A DNA stretch of 63,752 nt, counting the filler. It is 4 parts of 4 records of this genome, joined end to end, with 100 filler letters (N's around TTAATTAATTAA, not from the genome) between each part and the next. Parts side by side here need not be neighbours in the genome. Positions count along the whole stretch, not along the records: positions 50,404 to 63,752 come from SRR22947727_871; 3 more parts are not named here. The stretch is one strand, 5' to 3'. The translations under genes were made by a program, and so were the position numbers. The notes under the pieces were generated by a model. The model did no database searches. It saw nothing but the letters and a program-made list of their open reading frames with translations, and had not been told where the DNA came from. Each line of letters begins with the position of its first letter. The stretch's first letter is position 1. This document shows positions 47,476-62,864 of the stretch, piece by piece.

Positions 47476-50157
47476 TCAAGCAGCTTGCGTCATGGCCTGA
47501 TCGATGACGGCTCGAACCGCAGCGGTCATGTTTTCGATCTTGTAAGGTTTCTGAACAAATCCGTCGGGAACACTGCCTTCAGCAGACTGGAACGTGGACA
47601 AATCAACGAGGTAACCTGAGCAGATAAGAACCGGGACGTAATCGAACCGTTCGCGAATTTCAGTAAAGGTCTCGTCTCCTGATTTTTTCGGCATGGTCAT
47701 GTCGAGAAGGACAAGATCGATTTGCTGATCGCCCTTTTCGAAGATTTCGATGGCCTCTTCTCCATCTGAGGCGGTGATGATGTTGTAGCCCATTTTCGAC
47801 AGCAGTTTTTCAGCGACGGAACGAACGACCATCTCATCATCAACCAAAAGAAGGGTCTCGCCCTGGCCGCGACCGATGACGGCTTGTGTAGTTTTCACTT
47901 CGACACCTTGCTGAAGCTCCTTCGAGCGTGGGATATAGATGAAAAAGGTTGTGCCTTCGCCAATTTCACTCTCAAAATCGATCCACCCACCGAGTTGCTG
48001 AGCGATACCAAGGCAGGTAGCGAGTCCCAAGCCCGTTCCTTTGCCCTGCTCTTTCGTGGTGAAAAAGGGATCAAAAATCTGCTTTTGAATTTCTTTGGGA
48101 ATTCCTTCGCCGTTATCTTCGATAATGAGGCAGAGATAATCTCCGGCTCGAGAATCCGGGTGAACTTGCGCATCTTTTTCTGAAATCACGCAATTTTTGG
48201 TTGTGTACTTCAGATTTCCTCCATCCGGCATCGCATCAACAGCATTCACCGACATGTTCATGACAATTTGGCTCAGGAGGGCCGGGTCCGAAAGAACGTG
48301 CCATGCATTTACATCCAGATTACTGGCATCAACCGTGACTTTTGGATTAATCGTGCTGCTGATAAGGTCTTTGGTTTCTTCGACGATCTCGATCGCGTTG
48401 CATGGACAAAGGTCGATGTGGCTGCGACGGGAAAATCCGAGGAGTTTTTTCACAAGGCTGGTTGCCCGGCGGCTGGCGTGCATGGCCCGAATCAGTAACT
48501 CCTTCTTATCTTCGTGATTTTCACCAAGGTCTTCCATTTCGAGCAGTGAAAGGTGCCCGTATATTCCGGTGAGCAAGTTGTTGAAATCGTGAGCAACGCC
48601 ACCGGCAAGAGTGCCGAGCGCTTCGAGTTTCTGAGACTGACGGAGATTCTCTTCAAGAACACGTTTTTCGGTAAGGTCCCGAAGCACCCAGAGACGGCCG
48701 CTGGTTTCGCCAAGGCTGTCTGTAATCGGGGTGGTAAAGAGCGCTGCTACGCAATAATTGTCCCCGGCGCCGGTTTTGATCAGGTTTACCTCACGCTCGA
48801 AAATTGAGTTCGGTTTTAACATTGCCCCGAGAAATTCACGAGCGTCTTTCTTTTTCTTAATCTTGCCGATCAAGTGGTCGCGAAGCTCAGTCTCACTCAG
48901 TTCAGAATGATCCAGATTAGGAAGGTCAAGCAAACTGGAAAAAACACAGTTGCCCATGATAACGTATCCATTGGAATCGGTCACCAGTATCCCATCTTTT
49001 GATTCATTAAACGCGGCACGAAGGCGAGCCGTGGTATGCTTCAAATTCTGCTCGGACTTCTCCAGGTTCTTAGTACGTTTGGCGACGAGAAATTCCAGTT
49101 TTTCGTTGTGGCCTTTGATTTTCGAGACCATAAGATTAAAAGACTCAGCAAGCTCCCTTCCCTCCAGGAATCCGTTCGCTTCAACGGTAACATCCAAATC
49201 ACCACTGGCGACAAGACGAGCGCTCTCGTTCAAGCTACCGACATCCTTGGTGATGATCGATGTGACGACAAGGCCGATGAGCGTGGCAAATACAAAAGTC
49301 ATCGCCAAGGCGAAAAGCAATGCGATCTGAGATGTTGAAACGAGCTGCTTTACAGAAGAAAGAGGTTCTAAAACAAGCAACGCAAGTTCCGAATTCCCAA
49401 CGCTGAAATGCTTCACTGAGTATAGGTTTTCGACTCCGTCCGATGAAGTATGAACCCCACTTGACTTGTCTTTCAAGGCAGCCAGTGTCATTCCGGGGAA
49501 ATAGGCTGACTCACTGTACGGATCGTTGCCTGAAGAAATCAACATTCGGCCACCTTGATCCAAGAGAACAAATTTTCCATTCTTTTCACCGAGAGAGCTT
49601 TCATTGATCAGTTTACGAATTCTTCCAAAGTCGTGTCGCGCGACAATTACGTTCTCTACTTCAGATTTCTTGTTGAACAGAGGGATATAAATTGAGAAAA
49701 CCAGCTCCTCATTCCCAAAGATCACAGTTGGCAAGGATATCGTAGTCTCCCCCTCTAGAGCAGCCTCAAACCATGTCGTTTCGTCTTTCATCTTGGGAAG
49801 GTCTTTCGTCGTCGATTCGATCAAATACCCTGAATCACGATAAAGACTGATATCAATAAAGGATTCATTGGCACGCTGAAGCCTCCCCAACTCCCCCATC
49901 CGCGCTCCAATCTCGGCATCCAGATCTGAAACAATCGGATTTGTTTCGAGTGACTTCAAGCGGGATGCCATCCCTTCCATGAGCAGTTGGAGATGACTTA
50001 CCATCTGACCATTAATATTGATGATTCGATCTTGCTCAGAATTGCGGATCGTATTTCCCATGAAACCATTCGTGCATAAAAAGAGGGCAACGAGTGGAAG
50101 CAGACCCGTGAAAATCACGGCTACAAGGATCTGCCGTCTGAGTGAAAGTGCCTTCAT
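47476..50157 (-). CDS. Hybrid sensor histidine kinase (Cache-HAMP-PAS-HisKA-HATPase-REC)
   Basis: Two TMs; AGGVAHDFNNLL H-box, NAVDAM, DNGEGI, FDPFFTTK and GTGLGL; receiver LLVDDE...DMTMP...KP. Confidence 0.95.
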   Translation of the reverse strand: MKALSLRRQILVAVIFTGLLPLVALFLCTNGFMGNTIRNSEQDRIININGQMVSHLQLLMEGMASRLKSLETNPIVSDLDAEIGARMGELGRLQRANESFIDISLYRDSGYLIESTTKDLPKMKDETTWFEAALEGETTISLPTVIFGNEELVFSIYIPLFNKKSEVENVIVARHDFGRIRKLINESSLGEKNGKFVLLDQGGRMLISSGNDPYSESAYFPGMTLAALKDKSSGVHTSSDGVENLYSVKHFSVGNSELALLVLEPLSSVKQLVSTSQIALLFALAMTFVFATLIGLVVTSIITKDVGSLNESARLVASGDLDVTVEANGFLEGRELAESFNLMVSKIKGHNEKLEFLVAKRTKNLEKSEQNLKHTTARLRAAFNESKDGILVTDSNGYVIMGNCVFSSLLDLPNLDHSELSETELRDHLIGKIKKKKDAREFLGAMLKPNSIFEREVNLIKTGAGDNYCVAALFTTPITDSLGETSGRLWVLRDLTEKRVLEENLRQSQKLEALGTLAGGVAHDFNNLLTGIYGHLSLLEMEDLGENHEDKKELLIRAMHASRRATSLVKKLLGFSRRSHIDLCPCNAIEIVEETKDLISSTINPKVTVDASNLDVNAWHVLSDPALLSQIVMNMSVNAVDAMPDGGNLKYTTKNCVISEKDAQVHPDSRAGDYLCLIIEDNGEGIPKEIQKQIFDPFFTTKEQGKGTGLGLATCLGIAQQLGGWIDFESEIGEGTTFFIYIPRSKELQQGVEVKTTQAVIGRGQGETLLLVDDEMVVRSVAEKLLSKMGYNIITASDGEEAIEIFEKGDQQIDLVLLDMTMPKKSGDETFTEIRERFDYVPVLICSGYLVDLSTFQSAEGSVPDGFVQKPYKIENMTAAVRAVIDQAMTQAA

Positions 50158-50303
50158 CGGGATACGGGGAATCTAAGCTGACCGGCTTTACCCCCTTGTA
50201 AGGCGACAACGCAGAACGCTACAATCAGTGACGTTAATGTTTTTATATTTATTTTCATATCTTGGGGGGGGAAATATAATTAGAAGATAATATTCAACAT
50301 TAC

Positions 50304-50403
50304 NNNNNNNNNNNNNNNNNNNNNNNNNNNNNNNNNNNNNNNNNNNNTTAATTAATTAANNNNNNNNNNNNNNNNNNNNNNNNNNNNNNNNNNNNNNNNN
50401 NNN
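50304..50403. other. Artificial contig linker
   Basis: 44 N + TTAATTAATTAA + 44 N. Confidence 0.99.
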
Positions 50404-50477
50404 GAAATTAGATAAAACGAGATCGCTAAAATAAGGGTGTCAGCTAGGGACATTGCAGCCGATAATTACACTATTAC

Positions 50478-50672
50478 TTATTGCCTACCTGTCAGCTCAT
50501 CCCAGCTAATCGGTTCACCAGCCACTAACTGCCGACCGCGAGTGTGCATTGCTTGTAGGTCGGTTTCACTGTATTTAGACCACCAATCAGGAAGCCTGCA
50601 GCGTTGCCGTTCTCCCGGAAGAAGAGCGTCATCTTCAACAACAGGCTTTCGCTGCCTTCGCTTAGCTGGCAT
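50478..50672 (-). CDS. Small hypothetical protein
   Basis: ATG 14 bp after the sigma factor stop, co-oriented, 64 aa. Confidence 0.55.
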   Translation of the reverse strand: MPAKRRQRKPVVEDDALLPGERQRCRLPDWWSKYSETDLQAMHTRGRQLVAGEPISWDELTGRQ

Positions 50673-50685
50673 GACCTAAGCCCTA

Positions 50686-51885
50686 TCAAGCAGCCATTGC
50701 TTTCAGGACTGCTGCGATCGCTTGTGGTGAGCCTTCGTAGGAAACGCTATTGATTGTCAAGCTGACGGCTTCAGAATCACGCTCTGCTGCAATCTCTTCA
50801 CGAGTGCGCCGCACCCGCTTCCTCGGCTTGGGAGCCTCGATCGCAGGCTCGACTTCTGGTGCTTCAACCAAGCGTTCTAGAGCTTCTGCATTTACTGCAG
50901 CATGTCCATTTGTTGTGGGCTGGATTGATTGAGTCATGGGTGATTCAGGTAATGATGAACAGGAATGAGCAAGAACTAATTCCCTTGCTGGCAATGGCAC
51001 AGGCAAAGGAATATTTGGTTTTATTATTGCTGCTGCAGATTTTTCTATACCGCAGATTCGCTGCCTAATATCTTCTGGGCAATGTTCACGTACTGTTGCT
51101 CTAAGATCCTTAAGGCGTCGAGATACTTTTGATGAATGCAATCCTAATAATTCACCCATTTCTGTTTTTGAATAGTTTTCAGCTAGTTCTAGTGTTGCTA
51201 CTGCATCACGAACACCACCATCTTCAATATCTTTCAACTCGTTAAAAGCATCTACAATATCAATGCTTTCATCATCAATGATTTTATCTGCAATAAGGTC
51301 TATTAGCTTGGTAGAGTCTTCGCCCATTGTTACTTTTTTATCTAACGACGTGCATTCAGCTCTAGCATTTAAGGCGAATAGCTCATGACACTTTTTAGCA
51401 TCAATATTCTGCTCAGCTGCAAACTCTTCTAGCGTTTGACCTTCAGGGCGATATTTCCATTTCATGCCAAGTGCGTGCGCATGCTGTGGCTTACAAATTG
51501 TTCCATTGTTCATTTCGCAGCATCTATTCATTGATTGCCTAATCCACCAATAGGCGTATGTGCTGAACTTGTAGCCACTCTCTGGATCAAACTTTTCAAC
51601 TGCACGATTCAAACCTAATGTTCCTTCCTGCAACAGGTCTTCTGCACTAATCGCTGGGTTAGCTGCAACACGCTTGCTGTATTTCTTGAGGAGAGCTGCA
51701 ACAAGTTTTAAATTACACCTAATGAACCGATCTTTAGCCCTTCTACCTCGTTTAATCGTGCGAGCATCAGGGTCTTCTGCTGTTAACCAAGCCTGGATTT
51801 GATGTCCTAGCTGAATTTCTTGCGCACCAGTTAATAACGGGGCTCGCCCCGCACCGTTCATCCAATGATCAACGCTGCTTGTCAA
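50686..51885 (-). CDS. RpoD-family (group 2-like) sigma-70 factor with a C-terminal extension
   Basis: GRAPLLT..QEIQL (region 1.2); NLKLV, DLLQEGTLGLNRAVEKFDP..GYKFSTYAYWWIRQ (region 2); SLD; divergent HTH EMGELLGLHSSKVSR. Confidence 0.9.
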   Translation of the reverse strand: MTSSVDHWMNGAGRAPLLTGAQEIQLGHQIQAWLTAEDPDARTIKRGRRAKDRFIRCNLKLVAALLKKYSKRVAANPAISAEDLLQEGTLGLNRAVEKFDPESGYKFSTYAYWWIRQSMNRCCEMNNGTICKPQHAHALGMKWKYRPEGQTLEEFAAEQNIDAKKCHELFALNARAECTSLDKKVTMGEDSTKLIDLIADKIIDDESIDIVDAFNELKDIEDGGVRDAVATLELAENYSKTEMGELLGLHSSKVSRRLKDLRATVREHCPEDIRQRICGIEKSAAAIIKPNIPLPVPLPARELVLAHSCSSLPESPMTQSIQPTTNGHAAVNAEALERLVEAPEVEPAIEAPKPRKRVRRTREEIAAERDSEAVSLTINSVSYEGSPQAIAAVLKAMAA

Positions 51886-52016
51886 ACGATTGCAGGTCGC
51901 TATTACATTCTTAGTTTAGCTTTATTGACCGGCTGAAACAACATCAATATGCAGCAGAAGATCTCATCAGCCGCCCCCAACCGATGAGATCCAATGCACC
52001 AGTCCACCTTCCCGGG

Positions 52017-53194: not shown

Positions 53195-53228
53195 TGAAAT
53201 TGCCTCCTTTTGTTAAGTCTAGAGATTG

Positions 53229-53810
53229 TCAATTAGGCGCGACAACATTGCCCATTGCGATTTGCGCTGCCTGACGAATCTGCTGCTGCTTTGCTGCAAT
53301 GCGTGCATCTAATTCCTTTGCTCTCTTCGCGTCACGTTCTGCTTGTTGCTGACGTTCTGCGTCACGTTGTTGATCAGCTGCTATCGCACGTTTGGCTGCA
53401 TTGATGTCACCACCAAACCGCTGTGCAATACGATTCAATTGCATCTCTTGTGATGCCTGCTCTAGCTTCGCAAGCATGTCCTGCTCTGCTTTTTCAGCCT
53501 GTTCCTGTACTGCCTGCGGGTTGAATCTTGCATAATCTGTTGCCGCTTCACCTTGCATTGCATCAGGTGTAATTCCTGCTGCTACTGATGCGGCATAAGC
53601 CAATGATGGGACCATGCTTTCATGACCTGCCTCGCCCTTTAATTTATTAGCCAATGCAGGGCTGGCTGCTTCTAACATCCAGCGAATTTCACGTGATCTA
53701 GGTGTATCTGATGTAGACCAAGGATTAACAGCTTTCAGCCCGTCTAGCTTGACGCCTGCTGCTTGCAAAGCGTTAGCCAAAGCGAGTGCATCTTTGTTGT
53801 CGAGATTCAT
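53229..53810 (-). CDS. Hypothetical A/Q-rich helical protein
   Basis: AGGA RBS, ATG 53810; C-terminal coiled coil. Confidence 0.75.
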   Translation of the reverse strand: MNLDNKDALALANALQAAGVKLDGLKAVNPWSTSDTPRSREIRWMLEAASPALANKLKGEAGHESMVPSLAYAASVAAGITPDAMQGEAATDYARFNPQAVQEQAEKAEQDMLAKLEQASQEMQLNRIAQRFGGDINAAKRAIAADQQRDAERQQQAERDAKRAKELDARIAAKQQQIRQAAQIAMGNVVAPN

Positions 53811-53965
53811 GATCGTGTCCTGCACGAATTGATAACTTAATTTTAGCGATTTTGGCTTTTGATTTTATTGGAATCGGCCCCGTCTCGATCTCATTCATCG
53901 TCGGACCAAACCCCCCTTTTAGTCCGACGTCACAGTCGTTACGCTAGGAATCGGCTCTGGTTTGG

Positions 53966-54182
53966 TCGTGGCATTTGCCACGAGCAGCAGCCAGCGGGTG
54001 CAGAAAGCTTGCTGCGGCAGTCGGTCTTGGGTGGAGCCACAACACTTTCAACTGCTGAAAATGTTGTGGTCCTGGGGTGGAGTCACAGCATTGGTACCTG
54101 AGTACCCATCTTGTGTGATCTTGGGTGGAGCCACAGCATTACAACCGGGTTGTATTGGTGTGGACACAGCAGCCAGCCAGCG
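53966..54182. repeat. Three ~47-bp-spaced TCYTGGG(G)TGGAGYCACARCA repeats plus CAGCCAGC boxes
   Basis: Copies at 54025, 54070 and 54119; degenerate copy near 54155. Confidence 0.8.
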
Positions 54183-54280
54183 TGCAAGGGCAGACCAAAG
54201 GATGAGGATAAATCGGCAGACTCATGCGGATTAAATGACGACAGGTCGAACATTTCGCCAACCTTGGGGTGCTCACCGCT

Positions 54281-54310
54281 TTTCAAAGCACCTGGATCGG
54301 TGCTTTGAAA
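54281..54310. other. Perfect 12-bp hairpin bordering the 51-bp array
   Basis: TTTCAAAGCACC-TGGATC-GGTGCTTTGAAA. Confidence 0.75.
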
Positions 54311-54324
54311 GTCAACGCCGCGTG

Positions 54325-54582
54325 AATTAGGCACATTTTTGTCCGAGATTTCATCAGCAGACTTTCGTCCTTCGGAAAGGACGACATTTTTGTCGTCTAT
54401 TTCCTCAACAGGCTTTCGCCCTGGGCGAGCCTGCTGTATCCGCTCAGCGCCTACCGTTGCAACATTTTTGTTATCACGGTCCTGCTTGTTCTGCTCAACG
54501 CTTGAATCCATAGCATTTTTGCTATGGATTTCATCAGCAGACTTTCGCCCTTCTAGCTTTGGGACATTTTTGTCCCAGATTT
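54325..54582. repeat. 51-bp-period array: five CA-TTTT-TG hairpins with variable arms and a conserved 26-bp linker
   Basis: TTTT loops at 54336, 54387, 54465, 54516 and 54567; linker ATTTCATCAGCAGACTTTCGYCCTTC at 54348 and 54528, variant at 54399. Confidence 0.85.
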
Positions 54583-54655
54583 GTTGAGGTCAGTGCGGGT
54601 GCCCCAATCTCAAAAGGTGTCAGCCAGCAACGTGACACAGCAGCCAGCCAGCGGG

Positions 54656-55669
54656 TTAATTCACCGCTAATGCCAGCTGACCTGCAATCGGTTCACTTTC
54701 AATCTCTGAACGCCTCAGCAATACAACCTCTGTTCGTTCTGATCCATCTGCCCGCTTGCTCACACCAATAGAACTGAACGCCTCACGCTTGACCCATAAC
54801 CATCGGTTCTTTGGATACAGCGCACGCAGCTCGGGACAGTCGTAATACATGACCACCACACCAGAAGCAGGGACGCACTCCAACAGCTCTGCAAGCGCCT
54901 CATGCTGATTGAATCCACCTTCGGCATAGGCGTGCTCAGTGCCGAAATAAGGCGGATCTACAACAACCAAATCATTGGTTCTGCCTGTGCATTCCTTGCG
55001 GATCAACTCCAACGCATCGATGTTCATCACGGTGGGACCAACGAATGCCCTGCAAAGGGTTGGCAGGTGCTGAATCAATCGATCCCACTTCCTTGATTTG
55101 TTGCCGCTGCGATCAACTGCAAAACGGTTCTGCTTGAAGTTGCCAACGAAACCGTGATAGTTGCGAGCCAGCCACCACACAGCAACATCGGCATCAGACC
55201 ACTGATGATCAGGCTCAACGGTGTGATCAAACTCGGCAGCAGCAATGGGCATCAATGCCAAGCGTCGTTGAAGCTCTTTCGGGTCATTGCGTAAGGCTCT
55301 GAGCGTGGCAACCATCCAGCCATTGAGATCATTTAGGACCGCTTGATGTGGGCTGAGAAGGTCAGCCTTCAATGCTTCTAGATACAGGGCACCAGAACCC
55401 AGGAAGGGTTCAATCCAACGATCAAAGGTGATGCAGTTGTCAGTGATCACCTTGAGCACTTCAGGTCCGCTGATCGCACCCTTGCTTCCAATCAATGGGT
55501 GAACACCAGAGAGGCGTGATTGCTTCAGCGCCTGCCCAATGGTGAGGTCATCAGCAGCACGTTTGCGGTGGCGATGACTCTTGAGCTTGCAATAGTCGGA
55601 GCAGTATCGGGCAGAACGTCGTTGAGCTTGAAAGGACTTGCCGCAGACTTGGCAGCTGATCTCAGGCAT
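54656..55669 (-). CDS. DNA adenine methyltransferase (Dam/D12 class) with an N-terminal zinc finger
   Basis: CQVCGKSF...RYCSDYC; IGSK, IEPFLGSG, LNDLN and VDPPY motifs. Confidence 0.88.
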   Translation of the reverse strand: MPEISCQVCGKSFQAQRRSARYCSDYCKLKSHRHRKRAADDLTIGQALKQSRLSGVHPLIGSKGAISGPEVLKVITDNCITFDRWIEPFLGSGALYLEALKADLLSPHQAVLNDLNGWMVATLRALRNDPKELQRRLALMPIAAAEFDHTVEPDHQWSDADVAVWWLARNYHGFVGNFKQNRFAVDRSGNKSRKWDRLIQHLPTLCRAFVGPTVMNIDALELIRKECTGRTNDLVVVDPPYFGTEHAYAEGGFNQHEALAELLECVPASGVVVMYYDCPELRALYPKNRWLWVKREAFSSIGVSKRADGSERTEVVLLRRSEIESEPIAGQLALAVN

Positions 55670-55755
55670 TTATCAGTGCTTAGCGTTATCACTCCAATGA
55701 TAACGGTAACAACCTTGCGACGGTGAAAGGATGGTGCCCGCACCACCCTTTCTGA

Positions 55756-57040: not shown

Positions 57041-59218
57041 TCAACCATTGCTCCTATAGGAGAAATAAAACTCTCTTCCGACCTTCTTTTGGGTCAGAAG
57101 ACCTTCTCTTGCGCAAGCTCGAAGTTGTTTTCTTGTTCCTTCTATTTCCGAATCAGTGGGCTCACGTTCAAGATTTTGAACCTTGCACGCTGCAACCTGG
57201 CGAACAGTTACGCCATGCGGACCCTTCCAAACCCCTGCAGCAGAACCAACCCATTCGAGCGTTTCTCGTTGCCCAGTAGTAAGTCCTCCGATCACTTCAT
57301 CGTTGCCGTCCGTGCTTTGTAATTCAGCAAGAGATTGTTCAAACTTGCCAATTACATTCCAGGTGCCAGCTTCACCGTCAAAACCAACCAAGAGATCTTG
57401 GTAAGGCATCCGACCTTCAACGACGACGCGACGATATGGCGTTTCTTTATCCGCTACCCATTTATTGGTTCGTGGATCCTTCTTCTCAATGAAGTGGATG
57501 CTGATACCACCTGATGGAACACCTTTGGCTGAACCGTGACCACGAATTGCCTCCATGCCTAACTTGTCGCGATCTTGCGGTGAGTGGAAGGCACAAATAT
57601 GAGCACGTGTTTTATCAGCGCAATAGGTTTGGATGTCAATCAATGCACCACCTGCTTCAGGCTCTTGATCTGAACCATGAACAGGGCGAACGTTGGCGTA
57701 GAAGCTGTCAGAGATCAGGATTGCGCCAGGGTGTTTGGTGGTGATTTCAATGAGTTCATCCATTCCTTCGTCATCCCAACAGAGGTTGTCCTCTGCGGTG
57801 TAAAGCTTGACGATCTGAGGGTGAAGTCGTCCGTCAGCATCCATCAGCCCACGGGCTTTCAGATACTGCGCTGAATTAACTCCAGGCTGATCAGTCCACC
57901 ACAGAATGAACTTATGCTTTTCAGGTGATGGCATCCATTCGGGATTACCCATGAACGGATGCTGAAAGATCAATGATGAGACCAATTCAGTGAGACATTT
58001 GGTCTTACCAACCTTCACGAAGGCAGCAATTGAAGTCAGACAATCAGCCGAGATCAGATTGTTGATCAACCAAACCTGTACGGCGAAGGAAGCAACCTGA
58101 CCACCTGAAACGCCCTTCTCTTCAGTCTTCTTCAGAAGTGATCGCTGCTTTTGAATTAGGCGGCTGCGAACCTGTATCGGAGAAACGCGCAGATTTAATT
58201 CAGCTGCACTGGTGGCAGCACGGATCTGCCTTCTGATCGTGTTGCGCTCAAAGTTTGGATGATTTGGATCAACCAGATTCTTCAGCACTTCATCCCAATC
58301 GTCTAAAGGGGAGCCGCCCTCCGCTCCGCCTGATGGCTCCGCTTTGGGCTCTTTGTACCCACCAGCCTTTGCCCATTCATGCAGGGAGCCAATGCTTAGC
58401 CCACCTTCTTTGGGCTTAAAGCTGAGCCATTTCTTCAGGCACTCATCATCAGATTTGAAGTTGTCCATTTGCCTGGACCATTCAGTCCAGGCATCAAGCA
58501 ATCCTTCATCGGTGTGATGCAGGGCAATTCCAACCCGCAACCAACAGCGGTAGTTCTGATTCTTAGCAGGATCGATGCACTTGAGCATTTCCACTGCACG
58601 AGCGGCATCCTCACTGGTGGGTTCAACAGGCTTCGATTCTGTTTTCCTGGTGATGACCTCAAGCAACCATTCAGGTGCTTCTGAAACTTGCAGGAGATCA
58701 GGGCTGCGACCCTGGAGGAATTTGTATCCAGCAGTTTCAGGATGAGCGCCAATGACGGCACAGTAATGATCACTGAACCGTGCTTCAAGCAGATCAATTC
58801 CGTTCTCACCCCAAACCTTGCGATTTGGCATCTCCTCCCAATAATCCATGGGAACGATGAAAGCGAGCGCCGCACGACCGGGCTTGCCGCTAGTCCAACC
58901 CACCGTGATCGGAAGATCAGATACATCAAACCCGGTAGTGGATTTGAAGCAGCGTTTTGATGAATCTGGATCGTCTTTTAACGCATCAAAATCCAATATC
59001 AGCAGCCCACCGGAGGCAACACCGCATTTGACGCCAACAGCGTGAGTATCCCCATTCATGGAAGGGAAATCTTCTCGCCCCCATGAACGTGCTTTCCATG
59101 CGATACGCATTTCAGTACCGCTGACCTTCATCGGTCCCTTGTCATCAGACAAAGGGATCAGCTCCCAATCTTCAGGAAGCTGTTCAACCTGCTGCAGGTG
59201 AAAAGGAGAAAGGCTCAT
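57041..59218 (-). CDS. Prim-Pol + PriCT-2 + RecA-like (AAA_25-type) helicase replication protein
   Basis: WELIPL, AVGVKCG.ASGGLLILDFD, GAHPET..Y, APEWL; YRCWLRVGIALH...WTEWS...KKWLSF...SIGSLHEWAK; KVGKT Walker A; ILISDS Walker B; IRGHGS; C-terminal wHTH. Confidence 0.88.
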   Translation of the reverse strand: MSLSPFHLQQVEQLPEDWELIPLSDDKGPMKVSGTEMRIAWKARSWGREDFPSMNGDTHAVGVKCGVASGGLLILDFDALKDDPDSSKRCFKSTTGFDVSDLPITVGWTSGKPGRAALAFIVPMDYWEEMPNRKVWGENGIDLLEARFSDHYCAVIGAHPETAGYKFLQGRSPDLLQVSEAPEWLLEVITRKTESKPVEPTSEDAARAVEMLKCIDPAKNQNYRCWLRVGIALHHTDEGLLDAWTEWSRQMDNFKSDDECLKKWLSFKPKEGGLSIGSLHEWAKAGGYKEPKAEPSGGAEGGSPLDDWDEVLKNLVDPNHPNFERNTIRRQIRAATSAAELNLRVSPIQVRSRLIQKQRSLLKKTEEKGVSGGQVASFAVQVWLINNLISADCLTSIAAFVKVGKTKCLTELVSSLIFQHPFMGNPEWMPSPEKHKFILWWTDQPGVNSAQYLKARGLMDADGRLHPQIVKLYTAEDNLCWDDEGMDELIEITTKHPGAILISDSFYANVRPVHGSDQEPEAGGALIDIQTYCADKTRAHICAFHSPQDRDKLGMEAIRGHGSAKGVPSGGISIHFIEKKDPRTNKWVADKETPYRRVVVEGRMPYQDLLVGFDGEAGTWNVIGKFEQSLAELQSTDGNDEVIGGLTTGQRETLEWVGSAAGVWKGPHGVTVRQVAACKVQNLEREPTDSEIEGTRKQLRACAREGLLTQKKVGREFYFSYRSNG

Positions 59219-60426: not shown

Positions 60427-62214
60427 TCAGGCTCGCTTGGGGCTTAGGTCAATCAATCCAGCCTCATCTGATTTGATGCCCAGGGCTTCAAACAGCGGGG
60501 TCATATCAGCCACTCCGTCCACAGACGGCAGCAGCTGCATCAGTTGTTTGATCGACTCAGCATCAAGCTCGAAATTCACATCCTTAGCATTGACCATCAG
60601 GCTGCGAAGCGCTGCAGCATCAAGCCTCGGGTTCAACGGTTGCCAATCAATCTCACCGTCTCCAATGCTCATGCCAACCCTCTGATGCTCCCTATCAAGA
60701 CTGACCTTTAACCCGGCACGACGCATCAAATCATTGATGGCTTGCCGTTGCTTCGGGGTGTCCTCCTCGTTGGCAAAAGCTAGGAACAGCTCTTTCAATG
60801 CAGCTTGGAATTCCTTTGAATCCACCTCATGCCGCAGACCAGCTAACCGCTGCTGTGCTGTTGTAACCGCTGTTTTCTTGGCCTCCACCTCATCGCGAGC
60901 TTCATTCACTGCCTCTTGAAATAACGGATCGATCATTCCTGTTTTCAACGACTGCTTGAAGACACGGCTTGAATTTTCAAGTTCCTGTTCAGCCAACGCC
61001 AACTGACCTTGGAGCTTCGCGATTGCCTGCTCTTCACGCTTGATCCGAGCATCACGCCCCGTGCCGGCGAGTAGCTGTTGAAGCTGACCCTGCTGCAGGC
61101 GTGCAAGCAGATGTCCGTTTAAGTGATCGAGCCTGTACCCCTTAGCCCCGCACTTGGCGCTGCATCGGGAATAACGGAGCCGCAATGGCTTTCCATCTGG
61201 TCCTTTTCTCGTACCGCTGTAGGTGATGCCCAAGGTGGCGGTGGCACCGCATCCACATCGGGTCAATGTCTGAGCGATATTCCACGTCTGCCCTTTGATG
61301 CCAGAACCGGCGCCATCAGAAGTTCTGCTAGCGCGAGCTGCCAGCACCCCATCAACTTCATCTTTGGGGAGCACTAACGGCAGCAGATCAGGAAACAACG
61401 TTTCCTCTAGCCCCTCATCGATCCGGCGCTGTAATTCCTTCTGGGTGAGATCTTCTCTGCCGTACAAGCGCACAGCACCCCAAACCCGGGGGTCTTTCAA
61501 CAGACGGCGCACCTTGCTACGGGTCCAGGGTCTGGTGTCAGCCAGACCTGGAACTCCTTCTTCATTGAGACGGCTGGCAACGATCTGAGCACCATCGGAT
61601 TGCGCTAACTCAAACACCTTGCGGACGATCGCTGCACGATCAGGATCTAAGACCACCCGATCGCCATCAAAATTGCACCAAGGCGGCATGAACACGCCAA
61701 CGCGATTCAGCTTGTTTTGCGCAAGGTCAGCTGCTGATTGCTTCCATGCAGCGGTGATCCGTTTCGATAAGCGCTTGGAATATTGATGAGCGGCTTCTGC
61801 TTTCAAAGCCAGCATCACGAGCTTGGTGCCGTCTTCCCGAATTGCAGCGCGTGAAAATTCCTGCCCGTCTTCAAGGCTGACGATCGTGACCCCAGCGCGG
61901 ACCAGACCGAGCAGAACATCAGGAAGGCTGTCTAGTGCCTCTTGCCTGCTAAGCCTGTCGATTGCTTCGACTAGCAGGATCGGATCACCACCAAGATTTC
62001 CTGCCTGAGCCATCGCCAAGAATTTGCCGAGGGCACCCTTTGCCACGTTGTCGCCCTTGAAGGCTGATATACCTGCATCGCTCAAGCCGTCATCAATCTG
62101 CAAACCACGAGCTGCACACCAAGAATCTGCAGCGGTTGCTTGACGCTCTAAACCACGACCTTGCTCTACCTGCAAGGCTGAAGAAACACGCTCGTAGCTG
62201 AAGACTCGTGGCAT
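60427..62214 (-). CDS. Large serine recombinase (integrase)
   Basis: YERVSS catalytic Ser, LERQ, DAGISAF, VEAIDRLSR; recombinase domain; CGCG...CSAKC Zn ribbon; coiled coil. Confidence 0.95.
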   Translation of the reverse strand: MPRVFSYERVSSALQVEQGRGLERQATAADSWCAARGLQIDDGLSDAGISAFKGDNVAKGALGKFLAMAQAGNLGGDPILLVEAIDRLSRQEALDSLPDVLLGLVRAGVTIVSLEDGQEFSRAAIREDGTKLVMLALKAEAAHQYSKRLSKRITAAWKQSAADLAQNKLNRVGVFMPPWCNFDGDRVVLDPDRAAIVRKVFELAQSDGAQIVASRLNEEGVPGLADTRPWTRSKVRRLLKDPRVWGAVRLYGREDLTQKELQRRIDEGLEETLFPDLLPLVLPKDEVDGVLAARASRTSDGAGSGIKGQTWNIAQTLTRCGCGATATLGITYSGTRKGPDGKPLRLRYSRCSAKCGAKGYRLDHLNGHLLARLQQGQLQQLLAGTGRDARIKREEQAIAKLQGQLALAEQELENSSRVFKQSLKTGMIDPLFQEAVNEARDEVEAKKTAVTTAQQRLAGLRHEVDSKEFQAALKELFLAFANEEDTPKQRQAINDLMRRAGLKVSLDREHQRVGMSIGDGEIDWQPLNPRLDAAALRSLMVNAKDVNFELDAESIKQLMQLLPSVDGVADMTPLFEALGIKSDEAGLIDLSPKRA

Positions 62215-62864
62215 GCGCACAGGATGACGTAAAACGACCTACTTGCGCAAGAGGGACTGCACCTGTAATCTGCATCACTGGCCCTTCCGCGGTTGGGAAA
62301 ACCAGCTTCACCCTGGCCCTGGCACAAGCACTGGGCACTATTGGGCTTGAAGTGCTCGTGATCTGCTGCGATGACTACTACAGGCACCACTGGCGCCCTC
62401 ACCCACGCTTTGGATTCGACACAGCGGCAGCTATCGACATCGACGCGTTGCGCGCTGAGCTTGATGAGGTCAAGCACCACGCTGCAAGCAGCTTGCGCAC
62501 CTACGACATGGGCACGCGTGATGTAGCGCGCAAACCGCTGAACCAGAGCTACCAGCTTGTCTTGCTCGAAGGAGCCTATGGACCGCAAGAGCTGCTCGAC
62601 GATGGCTCGATCACAGCACTGTTTTATCTCGAAGCACCCTTGCTGCTGCGCATGATTCGACGGCTACGACGAGATCAACAAGAGCGCGGTCGTCATCCAA
62701 TTCAGATCATCCAACACATGCTGATGCACATGATTCCTGGTGAATGGAGTTTTATCCGCCCACTGCGATCGGTCTCGGGGCTTGTCATCACCAACCCACG
62801 CCAGGGACAAGTGGCTGCGATTGCGCTCATCCAGGCCCTGATGACTGAATCATCAGCAAGGTGA
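62208..62864 (+). CDS. udk: Uridine kinase family protein (start codon uncertain or displaced)
   Basis: ICITGPSAVGKTS, DDYYR, FD..AAID, LLEG and RRLRRD..ERG motifs; the only in-frame start is GTG 62208, overlapping the integrase start. Confidence 0.8.
   Translation: MACAQDDVKRPTCARGTAPVICITGPSAVGKTSFTLALAQALGTIGLEVLVICCDDYYRHHWRPHPRFGFDTAAAIDIDALRAELDEVKHHAASSLRTYDMGTRDVARKPLNQSYQLVLLEGAYGPQELLDDGSITALFYLEAPLLLRMIRRLRRDQQERGRHPIQIIQHMLMHMIPGEWSFIRPLRSVSGLVITNPRQGQVAAIALIQALMTESSAR

Follow-up and report, generated by a model that had tools for sequence, protein, structure and literature searches.

A variable-arm dyad array in a satellite-like element, more likely an origin or a decoy for one than a guide-RNA array of a new kind

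The DNA analysed here (the window) is a stretch of 63.7 kb, and the part discussed belongs to record SRR22947727_871. It holds a block of about 10 kb that encodes a large serine recombinase, a primase-helicase with PriCT_2 and AAA_25 domains, and several small open reading frames (ORFs) without a family. Within this block, an 830-bp gap at 53826-54655 separates a D12-class N6-adenine methylase from a gene of unknown function, all on the minus strand, and carries an array of five short dyads that share one centre and differ in their arms (Table 1). This repeat-rich, non-coding gap is most likely the replication-origin region of a small integrative satellite-like element, and the array itself is more likely to form an origin, or a decoy for one, than to be a novel array of guide RNAs. 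Statements on protein domains in the element refer to a scan of 14 ORFs of 50 amino acids (aa) or more between 52.0 and 62.2 kb.

Table 1. Features of the array, the gap and the surrounding element (window positions).
Feature	Position	Strand	Description
Unit 1	54330..54345	.	Imperfect dyad GGCACA-TTTT-TGTCCG
Unit 2	54380..54397	.	GACGACA-TTTT-TGTCGTC, 7-bp arms
Unit 3	54453..54480	.	ACCGT-TGC-AACA-TTTT-TGTT-ATC-ACGGT
Unit 4	54505..54530	.	Arms AATCCATAGCA/TGCTATGGATT, 11 bp, perfect; holds ATG at 54511
Unit 5	54560..54577	.	TGGGACA-TTTT-TGTCCCA, 7-bp arms
26-bp linker, copy 1	54348..54373	.	25/26 identical to 54528-54553; variant at 54399-54424
Open frame, 168 codons	54086..54589	-	All five units are translated as xKNx
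20-bp exact direct repeat GACACAGCAGCCAGCCAGCG	54163..54182	.	Second copy 54634-54653, degenerate third ~53985-53999
TTGGGTGGAGCCACAGCA, three copies	54026..54163	.	46-48 bp apart, each followed by a long hairpin
Perfect 12-bp hairpin TTTCAAAGCACC/GGTGCTTTGAAA	54281..54310	.	Adjoins array
Unknown-function gene, 193-198 aa	53229..53825	-	Downstream neighbour of gap
D12-class N6-adenine DNA methyltransferase	54656..55669	-	Upstream neighbour of gap
Primase-helicase, PriCT_2 + AAA_25	57041..59218	-	Sole replication protein found in element
Large serine recombinase (integrase)	60427..62220	-	Part of the ~10-kb block

Anatomy and symmetry of the array

Five CATTTTTG cores stand on the plus strand at 54334, 54385, 54463, 54514 and 54565, with spacings of 51, 78, 51 and 51 bp, exactly as an earlier note on this DNA had described. 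Over both strands of the window the core occurs 13 times where 6.4 occurrences are expected, and five of these fall within 240 bp. Counting the CA/TG of the core, the perfectly complementary arms of units 1 to 5 measure 3, 7, 4, 11 and 7 bp; in unit 3, the inner 4 bp and an outer 5 bp are complementary, with a 3x3 mismatch between them. The 12-mer GACAAAAATGT(C/G) is common to units 1, 2 and 5 (three of the five), whereas units 3 and 4 differ, and the outer arms are different in every unit. The units stem from a 51-bp duplication, the flanks of units 1, 2 and 4 being homologous and likewise those of units 3 and 4. The array is a real, non-random feature of this DNA.

The earlier note had further claimed that the arms vary while staying reverse-complementary, and had read this as selection on symmetry. 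Once the five units are aligned on their core, 84.6% of the cells pair, against 65.8% with shuffled partners, and not one of 500 shuffles reaches the observed value; sliding the partner by one to three columns gives 32-49%. Arm pairs are changed on both sides in 10 of 13 cases. The first claim is borne out; the dyad of unit 1 is imperfect. As to the second, maintenance of arm symmetry is supported by this five-unit test together with the new complementary arms seen in relatives. The recurring 26-bp linker was also recovered, as was a competing hairpin at 54365-54384, at the end of the first linker. The ends of linkers 1 and 2 (54365-54384 and 54408-54432) form the hairpins TCGTCCTT/AAGGACGA and CGCCC/GGGCG within CAGGC...GCCTG, in which a T/C difference in the left arm is mirrored by A/G in the right arm.

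Paired arms of this kind also suit a structured RNA, in which transcribed units would fold as hairpins with a constant UUUU (plus strand) or AAAA (minus strand) loop. These would either take up an RNA-binding protein at several sites, as a sponge or scaffold in the way CsrB does, or form a processed array. Besides the arm covariation, fold z-scores over 54300-54600 are strongly negative on both strands (-6.0 on the plus and -7.2 on the minus strand), unit 3 has an internal loop between its paired segments, and the gap holds many more hairpins, including a second class whose variable upper stem varies in a relative. Beyond the perfect arms, the plus strand shows 10 G-T contacts against one A-C, of which several come from conserved flanks and are therefore not independent. 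This account is weakened by the lack of any Rfam family at gathering score, of a sigma-70-like promoter in the sequence searched, and of a Nop, Cas or other RNA-binding partner among the scanned ORFs, while terminator-like sites are weak. Moreover, the unit anatomy is not that of TIGR arrays, and the identical phage dyads, whose arms are constant, lie within initiator genes that code for protein; this suits DNA sites more than RNA hairpins. A structured RNA is thus doubtful here, if deserving of some weight; if correct, it would amount to an undescribed hairpin-array RNA.

Comparison with TIGR systems bears directly on the first option of the earlier note, a TIGR-like processed RNA array. TIGR units, as the consulted sections of PMC12045711 describe them, place two spacers of 8-12 nt, together with box C/D motifs, between their repeats or stem halves, and a Nop-domain Tas gene adjoins the dual-repeat as well as the stem-loop arrays (PMC12045711, bioRxiv 10.64898/2026.09.09.750476, each in part). 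A TIGR array would also be cut into discrete small RNAs, of 36 nt or in the form of stem-loop units. The resemblance lies in tandem units that combine variable palindromic with short constant segments, and TIGR arrays can likewise be in frame within genes. Their spacers, on the other hand, are described as non-complementary and bounded by box C/D motifs, whereas the arms in the window lie 4-8 nt apart. These arms directly flank the 4-nt loop (an 8-nt constant core), and hence no spacer pair lies between them. No Pfam match to Nop, HNH-Tas, RuvC-Tas or Cas was obtained among the 14 ORFs. The TIGR option was rejected on these two tested features, the missing Nop protein and the wrong unit anatomy; a CRISPR-like array was dropped because constant and variable parts are swapped. 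As the evidence stands, the array does not belong with guide systems of the CRISPR or TIGR kind. Integron attC sites, HUH nick-site hairpins, tRNA-anticodon-loop mimics and partition centromeres were also dropped, as no supporting gene or motif accompanied them.

Identical dyads in phage initiator genes

Public collections were scanned for three CATTTTTG cores at periods of 44-58 bp, followed by a filter for complementary arms. Clusters of arm-CATTTTTG-arm dyads, 22-45 bp apart, occur inside opposite-strand ORFs of viral contigs and of some genome contigs, where they are translated as DKNV, GKNA, VKND, IKND or SKNG repeats. In particular, the dyads GGGACAAAAATGTCCC and ACGACAAAAATGTCGT cluster in HTH_36, Rep_O or DnaD-like initiator genes and read DKNV, in the same frame that is open in the window. 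All nine dyad-bearing ORFs that were scanned contain a helix-turn-helix; five score above the HTH_36 cut-off, one matches Phage_rep_O plus DnaB_2, and one more matches DnaB_2. Named phages contain homologues, and the annotations these carry are DnaD-like helicase loader, replication protein O or RepA-like replication initiator. Dyads placed inside initiator ORFs correspond to the arrangement of lambda, with origin iterons within the initiator gene; there, according to the part of PMC4488673 used, four 19-bp origin iterons lie inside the O gene.

The identity extends over entire inner dyads. The 16-mer of unit 5, GGGACATTTTTGTCCC (also present as a variant in a relative), has 96 matches at 90 viral loci; 27 matches are accompanied within 300 bp by one or more further loose GACATTTTTGTC copies, and 20 by two or more. 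For the 16-mer of unit 2, ACGACATTTTTGTCGT, there are 52 viral matches, 12 with at least one and eight with at least two further loose core copies within the same distance. The inner 16-mer of unit 5 is clustered in initiator ORFs of loci L230, L276, L281, L213, L212, L237 and L239, and that of unit 2 in initiator-like ORFs such as that of L340. Dyads lie inside further initiator-like ORFs in L289, L229, L225, L314 and L304, which is not the case in L328. The dyads of units 5 and 2 thus equal clustered dyads of viral contigs.

Locus L230 carries four dyads 24 bp apart and reads TGDKNVPS four times, and across phages an identical dyad is read in all three frames, as DKNV, TKMS or QKCP. The dyad-bearing viral contigs range from 31 to 62% G+C. 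In L212, L237 and L239, the outer arms vary within one origin while the GACAAAAATGTC core is kept. In the window, this core is present in units 2 and 5, and in unit 1 at 11 of 12 positions, the minus strand of which reads GACAAAAATGTG.

The second option of the earlier note, a set of operators for dimeric phage proteins, comes close to the reading preferred here. Two arm types recur exactly in dyads that cluster within the initiator genes of phages; the proteins would therefore most likely be replication initiators and the sites origin iterons, and the array could serve as the element's own origin, as a site for hijacking or as a decoy. As a separate observation, A5-centred dyads, of which the GACAAAAATGTC core is the commonest, are widespread in phage initiator genes (L149, L132, L157, L173, L181, L160, L051, L138, L041 and others). 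Two candidates were set aside: a 22-nt match to unit 4 in L362, which is the terminator hairpin of an AT-rich phage, and the RepA-like gene of Arthrobacter phage Prairie, which has no A-tract dyad.

The open frame and the turnover of the array in relatives

The minus strand is open across all five units. This frame is bounded by a TGA at 54592-54590, and its first ATG, GTG or TTG lies at 54511, giving a 142-aa ORF (54083-54511); the start position, and the observation that all spacings are multiples of three, agree with the earlier reading of this strand. The codon-usage score of the frame is 0.22 overall and 0.33 in the array part, compared with 0.06-0.43 for the genes of the element, and the other five frames score negative. 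The array peptide has no Pfam or PHROG family; two word-indexed searches for homologues came back empty, and tblastn against phages gave only E-values of 3 or more. A full scan of 1.84 billion representatives yielded only P0016, a 75-aa ORF on a 2676-bp contig, and the spurious P0015, which was rejected as an unrelated Ig-like repeat protein that scores too high because of 13 weak stretches.

P0016 represents a related array whose frame is the same but which differs in the order of its units, in its spacings (36 and 69 nt) and by a 4-residue indel. It begins before its unit-2-like repeat and ends eight residues past its unit-4-like repeat, whereas the window ORF begins inside unit 4. It also contains a new unit, AHKNVG, in which the flanking residues are again specified by reverse-complementary codons. 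The same holds for every unit: the residues on either side of KN come from reverse-complementary codon pairs (D/V, W/P, S/A, H/M, I/D and N/V; H/V and A/G in P0016), which argues for a nucleic-acid constraint and not a protein one.

Metagenomes showed the variation among relatives directly. Of the sampled words, 4-9% recur in each of seven DNA runs, which come from four marine, estuary and aquatic studies, and no RNA run contains the stretch; contigs of four runs were compared across 53200-55700. The flanking genes are 94-96% identical (differences of 32/920, 34/761, 14/248 and 17/275 nt), and the gap is mosaic, with units that differ in number and order. Two runs carry 29 nt in place of units 1-3 (206 bp), a net change of 177 nt, or 59 x 3, that keeps the frame and, by hand reading, introduces no stop. 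One contig joins 53878 to 54628, so that the whole gap is gone. One relative has a joint from 54598 to 54430 plus one extra base, with a 68-bp spacing and a shifted frame. Another contig spans units 1-2 with 20 substitutions and seven indels, and continues to a new dyad, GGGGACA/TGTCCCC, 51 bp past unit 2. Start, stop and frame are not conserved throughout the relatives, P0016 included.

These data weigh on the possibility of a charged, disordered protein with EIxxKNxx repeats, specified by the ORF of the minus strand (54511-54083) or by an extended version of it, to which the palindromes would be secondary. In its favour are the 168 open codons with their gene-like score, the four spacings divisible by three, the in-frame 177-nt change in two runs, and the calling of P0016 in the same frame with an indel of four whole residues. 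However, the first start codon comes only after two of the five units, and the TGA stands ahead of these; the ends of the ORF differ between P0016 and the window; the 68-bp joint shifts the frame; and the tail of the ORF traverses other DNA repeats. No protein family is matched, the full scan adds only P0016 and one spurious protein, and selection at the protein level cannot explain reverse-complementary codons around KN. A protein repeat is accordingly very unlikely.

The earlier note had also called for a collection of homologous elements, and this succeeded only through the metagenomes, in which unit number and arms are indeed altered; searches with the linker and the gap yielded no usable relative. 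An exact 19-mer of the linker gave only chance matches in genome contigs (seven loci in unrelated taxa) and none in viral contigs, and blastn of the 830-bp gap against phages and plasmids found no match. The nearest genome, G001, gave no match, and the 198-aa protein encoded beside the gap was not found in 61 relatives. With this protein, its alignment or the methylase as query, no relatives were found in genome or viral contigs. The metagenome contig L008 stops 77 nt before the 198-aa gene and hence does not show the array. The primase-helicase, sought across 401 genomes of the phylum, returned just two distant PriCT matches.

Rapid turnover raises the question of whether the array is a neutral or selfish palindromic minisatellite, a functionless 51-bp unit expanded by slippage, in which intramolecular template switching (quasi-palindrome correction) would keep the arms complementary; it would be comparable to dispersed intergenic palindrome arrays. 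The units clearly come from a 51-bp duplication, and the region is mosaic in relatives and wholly gone in one. In addition, Paenibacillus and other Bacillales hold many 51-bp arrays with a GG-CATTTTTG-CC hairpin between housekeeping genes. These Bacillales arrays are alike in their period of 51-52 bp and in a hairpin with the same CATTTTTG centre. They are unlike in that their arms are constant within each array of 3-13 copies, with several arrays per genome, whereas in the window the arms differ while centre and linker are kept. Moreover, two arm types here exactly equal phage origin dyads. The three-core pattern is absent from 301 genomes of the order of the nearest genome, and the array is therefore not a dispersed host repeat. 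We consider a minisatellite distinctly improbable.

Some further features of the Bacillales arrays were recorded. Their hairpins have the form xxGG-CATTTTTG-CCxx, with arms that differ between arrays (L019, L033, L045, L054, L074, L099, L105, L106, L109, L117 and L122), and their neighbours include genes for an epimerase, a DyP peroxidase, an AraC regulator, a rhamnosidase and a P-type ATPase. No Rfam family was matched by these arrays. L074 is fully open as FKGKNAFDSGYFGLTxR repeats, and in L054 each unit is interrupted by a stop in that frame.

A possible origin function and the surrounding element

We tentatively read the five units as initiator-binding dyads of an origin or origin decoy, a reading that is quite possible though short of probable, and in which binding, origin function and the identity of the binder are what we infer. 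Several features accord with initiator-binding sites of the origin type: the form of the units, their identity with phage dyads, the reading frame they have in common with these, the surroundings in a satellite-like element and the speed of turnover. Each unit would offer two half-sites converging on an A5/T5 tract, the form recognised by dimeric winged-helix initiators. Initiator dimers would sit on the dyads and, 51 bp being about five helical turns, on the same face of the helix; the resulting nucleoprotein complex, aided by neighbouring hairpins, could let the primase-helicase begin replication. Since no initiator of the matching families was found in the element, the binder would be either its own primase-helicase, through the C-terminal part, or the initiator of an infecting helper phage; with the latter, the array might be an origin used for hijacking or a decoy that titrates the phage protein. 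The open, gene-like frame could result from descent from, or convergence with, origin repeats within phage initiator genes.

A bolder version holds that the array is a natural multi-specificity decoy or hijack site whose different dyads match the initiators of different helper or enemy phages. A phage initiator would then either fire replication of the element or be titrated off the phage origin, and the set of dyads would turn over fast in an arms race with initiator specificities. This version is unlikely. A still smaller share of the probability, on a par with that of the protein repeat, falls to some other explanation.

Several observations weigh against initiator-binding dyads. The constant centre of the phage examples was set by the search pattern itself. 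The arms are heterogeneous between units, unlike those expected for a single initiator specificity, and units 3 and 4 do not have the GACA...TGTC core. The outer 5-bp complement that unit 3 keeps past its 3x3 mismatch and the 11-bp arms of unit 4 both suggest selection on pairing itself, as hairpin or cruciform, and not on half-site sequence. The earlier note had suggested a search of the palindromes against cyanophage genomes; a search of units 2, 4 and 5 against viral contigs found clustered counterparts in initiator genes for units 2 and 5 and none for unit 4: its 16-mer has 100 viral matches, six of them with one further copy and none with two. The spacing is 51 bp here and 22-24 bp in phages, and inspection by eye shows no AT-rich unwinding element immediately next to the array. 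In Paenibacillus, arrays that match this one in period (51 bp) and loop are flanked by housekeeping genes, and replication genes are not found near them. Furthermore, no Pfam match to HTH_36, Phage_rep_O, RepA_N or DnaB_2 was found in the scanned ORFs of the element, and 14 phage initiators compared with it by tblastn reached a best E-value of 0.39. For the C-terminal 180 residues of the primase-helicase, the nearest named Atlas clusters include winged-helix families (scores of 0.90-0.91), which is only a lead, and the single-sequence model of this part is unusable (pLDDT 44).

Known origins provide the closest comparisons for initiator-binding dyads. Most characterised RepA_N iterons are described as direct repeats whose inverted sub-repeats face each other across a poly-A tract. 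In the Vibrio cholerae satellite PLE, RepA binds an origin iteron with arms of 13 bp, and the surrounding non-coding region contains four repeat families (PMC7145576, in part). Variation in PLE origins goes together with variation in the DNA-binding domains of RepA, the iterons are attacked by a phage nuclease, and natural PLE escape variants rapidly rearrange the iteron region under this attack (PMC8263062, in part). As far as these sources were drawn on, the window array shares with RepA_N and PLE origins the semi-palindromic direct repeats, the inverted sub-repeats meeting at a poly-A tract and the variation in arm length (3-13 bp in PLE). With PLE it also shares a long non-coding satellite region with several repeat families and iterons rearranged between natural variants. 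In contrast, the same sources give PLE three iterons of about 30 bp, one specificity and an encoded cognate RepA, whereas the array here has five units with different arms at a spacing of 51 bp, and a search of the element turned up no RepA_N, HTH_36 or Rep_O gene.

RepA_N origins are located inside repA. The phage origins within initiator genes resemble the array in their identical 12-18-bp dyads with the GACAAAAATGTC core and in a DKNV reading in the same open, gene-like frame. They are unlike it in lying between the N-terminal winged-helix and the C-terminal domain of one gene, with constant inner arms; no winged-helix or C-terminal domains flank the array in the window. The origin-binding domain of P4 alpha, the ssi sites of RSF1010 and CsrB are further points of comparison. 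The original work on phage-encoded resistance (PER) in Lactococcus is reportedly a precedent for origin decoys.

Copies of an origin supplied in trans block the cognate phage, as recorded in the portions used of PMC4488673 and PMC6356513. Such decoys (PER and ectopic lambda ori) are similar to the array in that phage origin repeats stand in trans, on another replicon and without an initiator gene; those described in these portions are cloned or prophage fragments of one phage origin, whereas the array combines several different dyads.

Taken together, the array is best filed among the iteron-type origin repeats of phage satellites. If its dyads are origin sites, it would represent a satellite-type origin that is unusual in its heterogeneous arms, its 51-bp phase and the lack of a cis-encoded initiator, and would bear on how marine and estuarine integrative elements replicate and deal with their helper phages. 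Beyond this element, GACAAAAATGTC-type dyads in HTH_36, Rep_O or DnaD-like genes may help to locate origins in uncultured phages.

The remainder of the gap is equally rich in repeats. The two exact GACACAGCAGCCAGCCAGCG copies flank a 471-bp module with the array inside, and these motifs look like module boundaries or recombination points. Among side observations, the GACACAGCAGCCAGCCAGCG motif terminates contig L008 (L008 1-18), about 60 nt ahead of the 198-aa gene, and the depth of metagenome contigs has maxima at 54628-54711 and 53788-53955. The TTGGGTGGAGCCACAGCA-linked hairpins (33-36 nt) keep the base CCACA...TGTGG, and their upper stems differ yet remain complementary; a variant of this class was seen in a metagenome contig. 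Judged by eye, just one stretch is clearly AT-rich; it spans about 53826-53870 and is roughly 450 bp distant from the array. No tRNA gene and, at gathering score, no Rfam family was detected in the window, and the HIP1 motif GCGATCGC is not enriched (two found against 2.7 expected), so the host is not called a cyanobacterium.

As for the neighbouring genes, the 198-aa protein has 14 homologues at 96% to 36% identity (11 from ENA, two from NCBI and one from Logan, on contigs of 0.75-25 kb), none of which carries a name. It has no fold match in PDB or BFVD, no PDB sequence match, no Atlas match and no family; its confident model (pLDDT 83) predicts a small helical domain and a long coiled coil. 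The first 40 or so residues of the D12 methylase (CxxC...CxxC) match several PHROGs of unknown function and HNH-endonuclease families, which suggests that the enzyme carries an extra N-terminal zinc-ribbon-like module. Lastly, G+C falls to 42-43% at 50001-52000, compared with 49-59% elsewhere in the window, and this region, which adjoins a sigma-70 gene (50686-51885; phage sigma-factor PHROG 351), may mark the left end of the element or belong to it.

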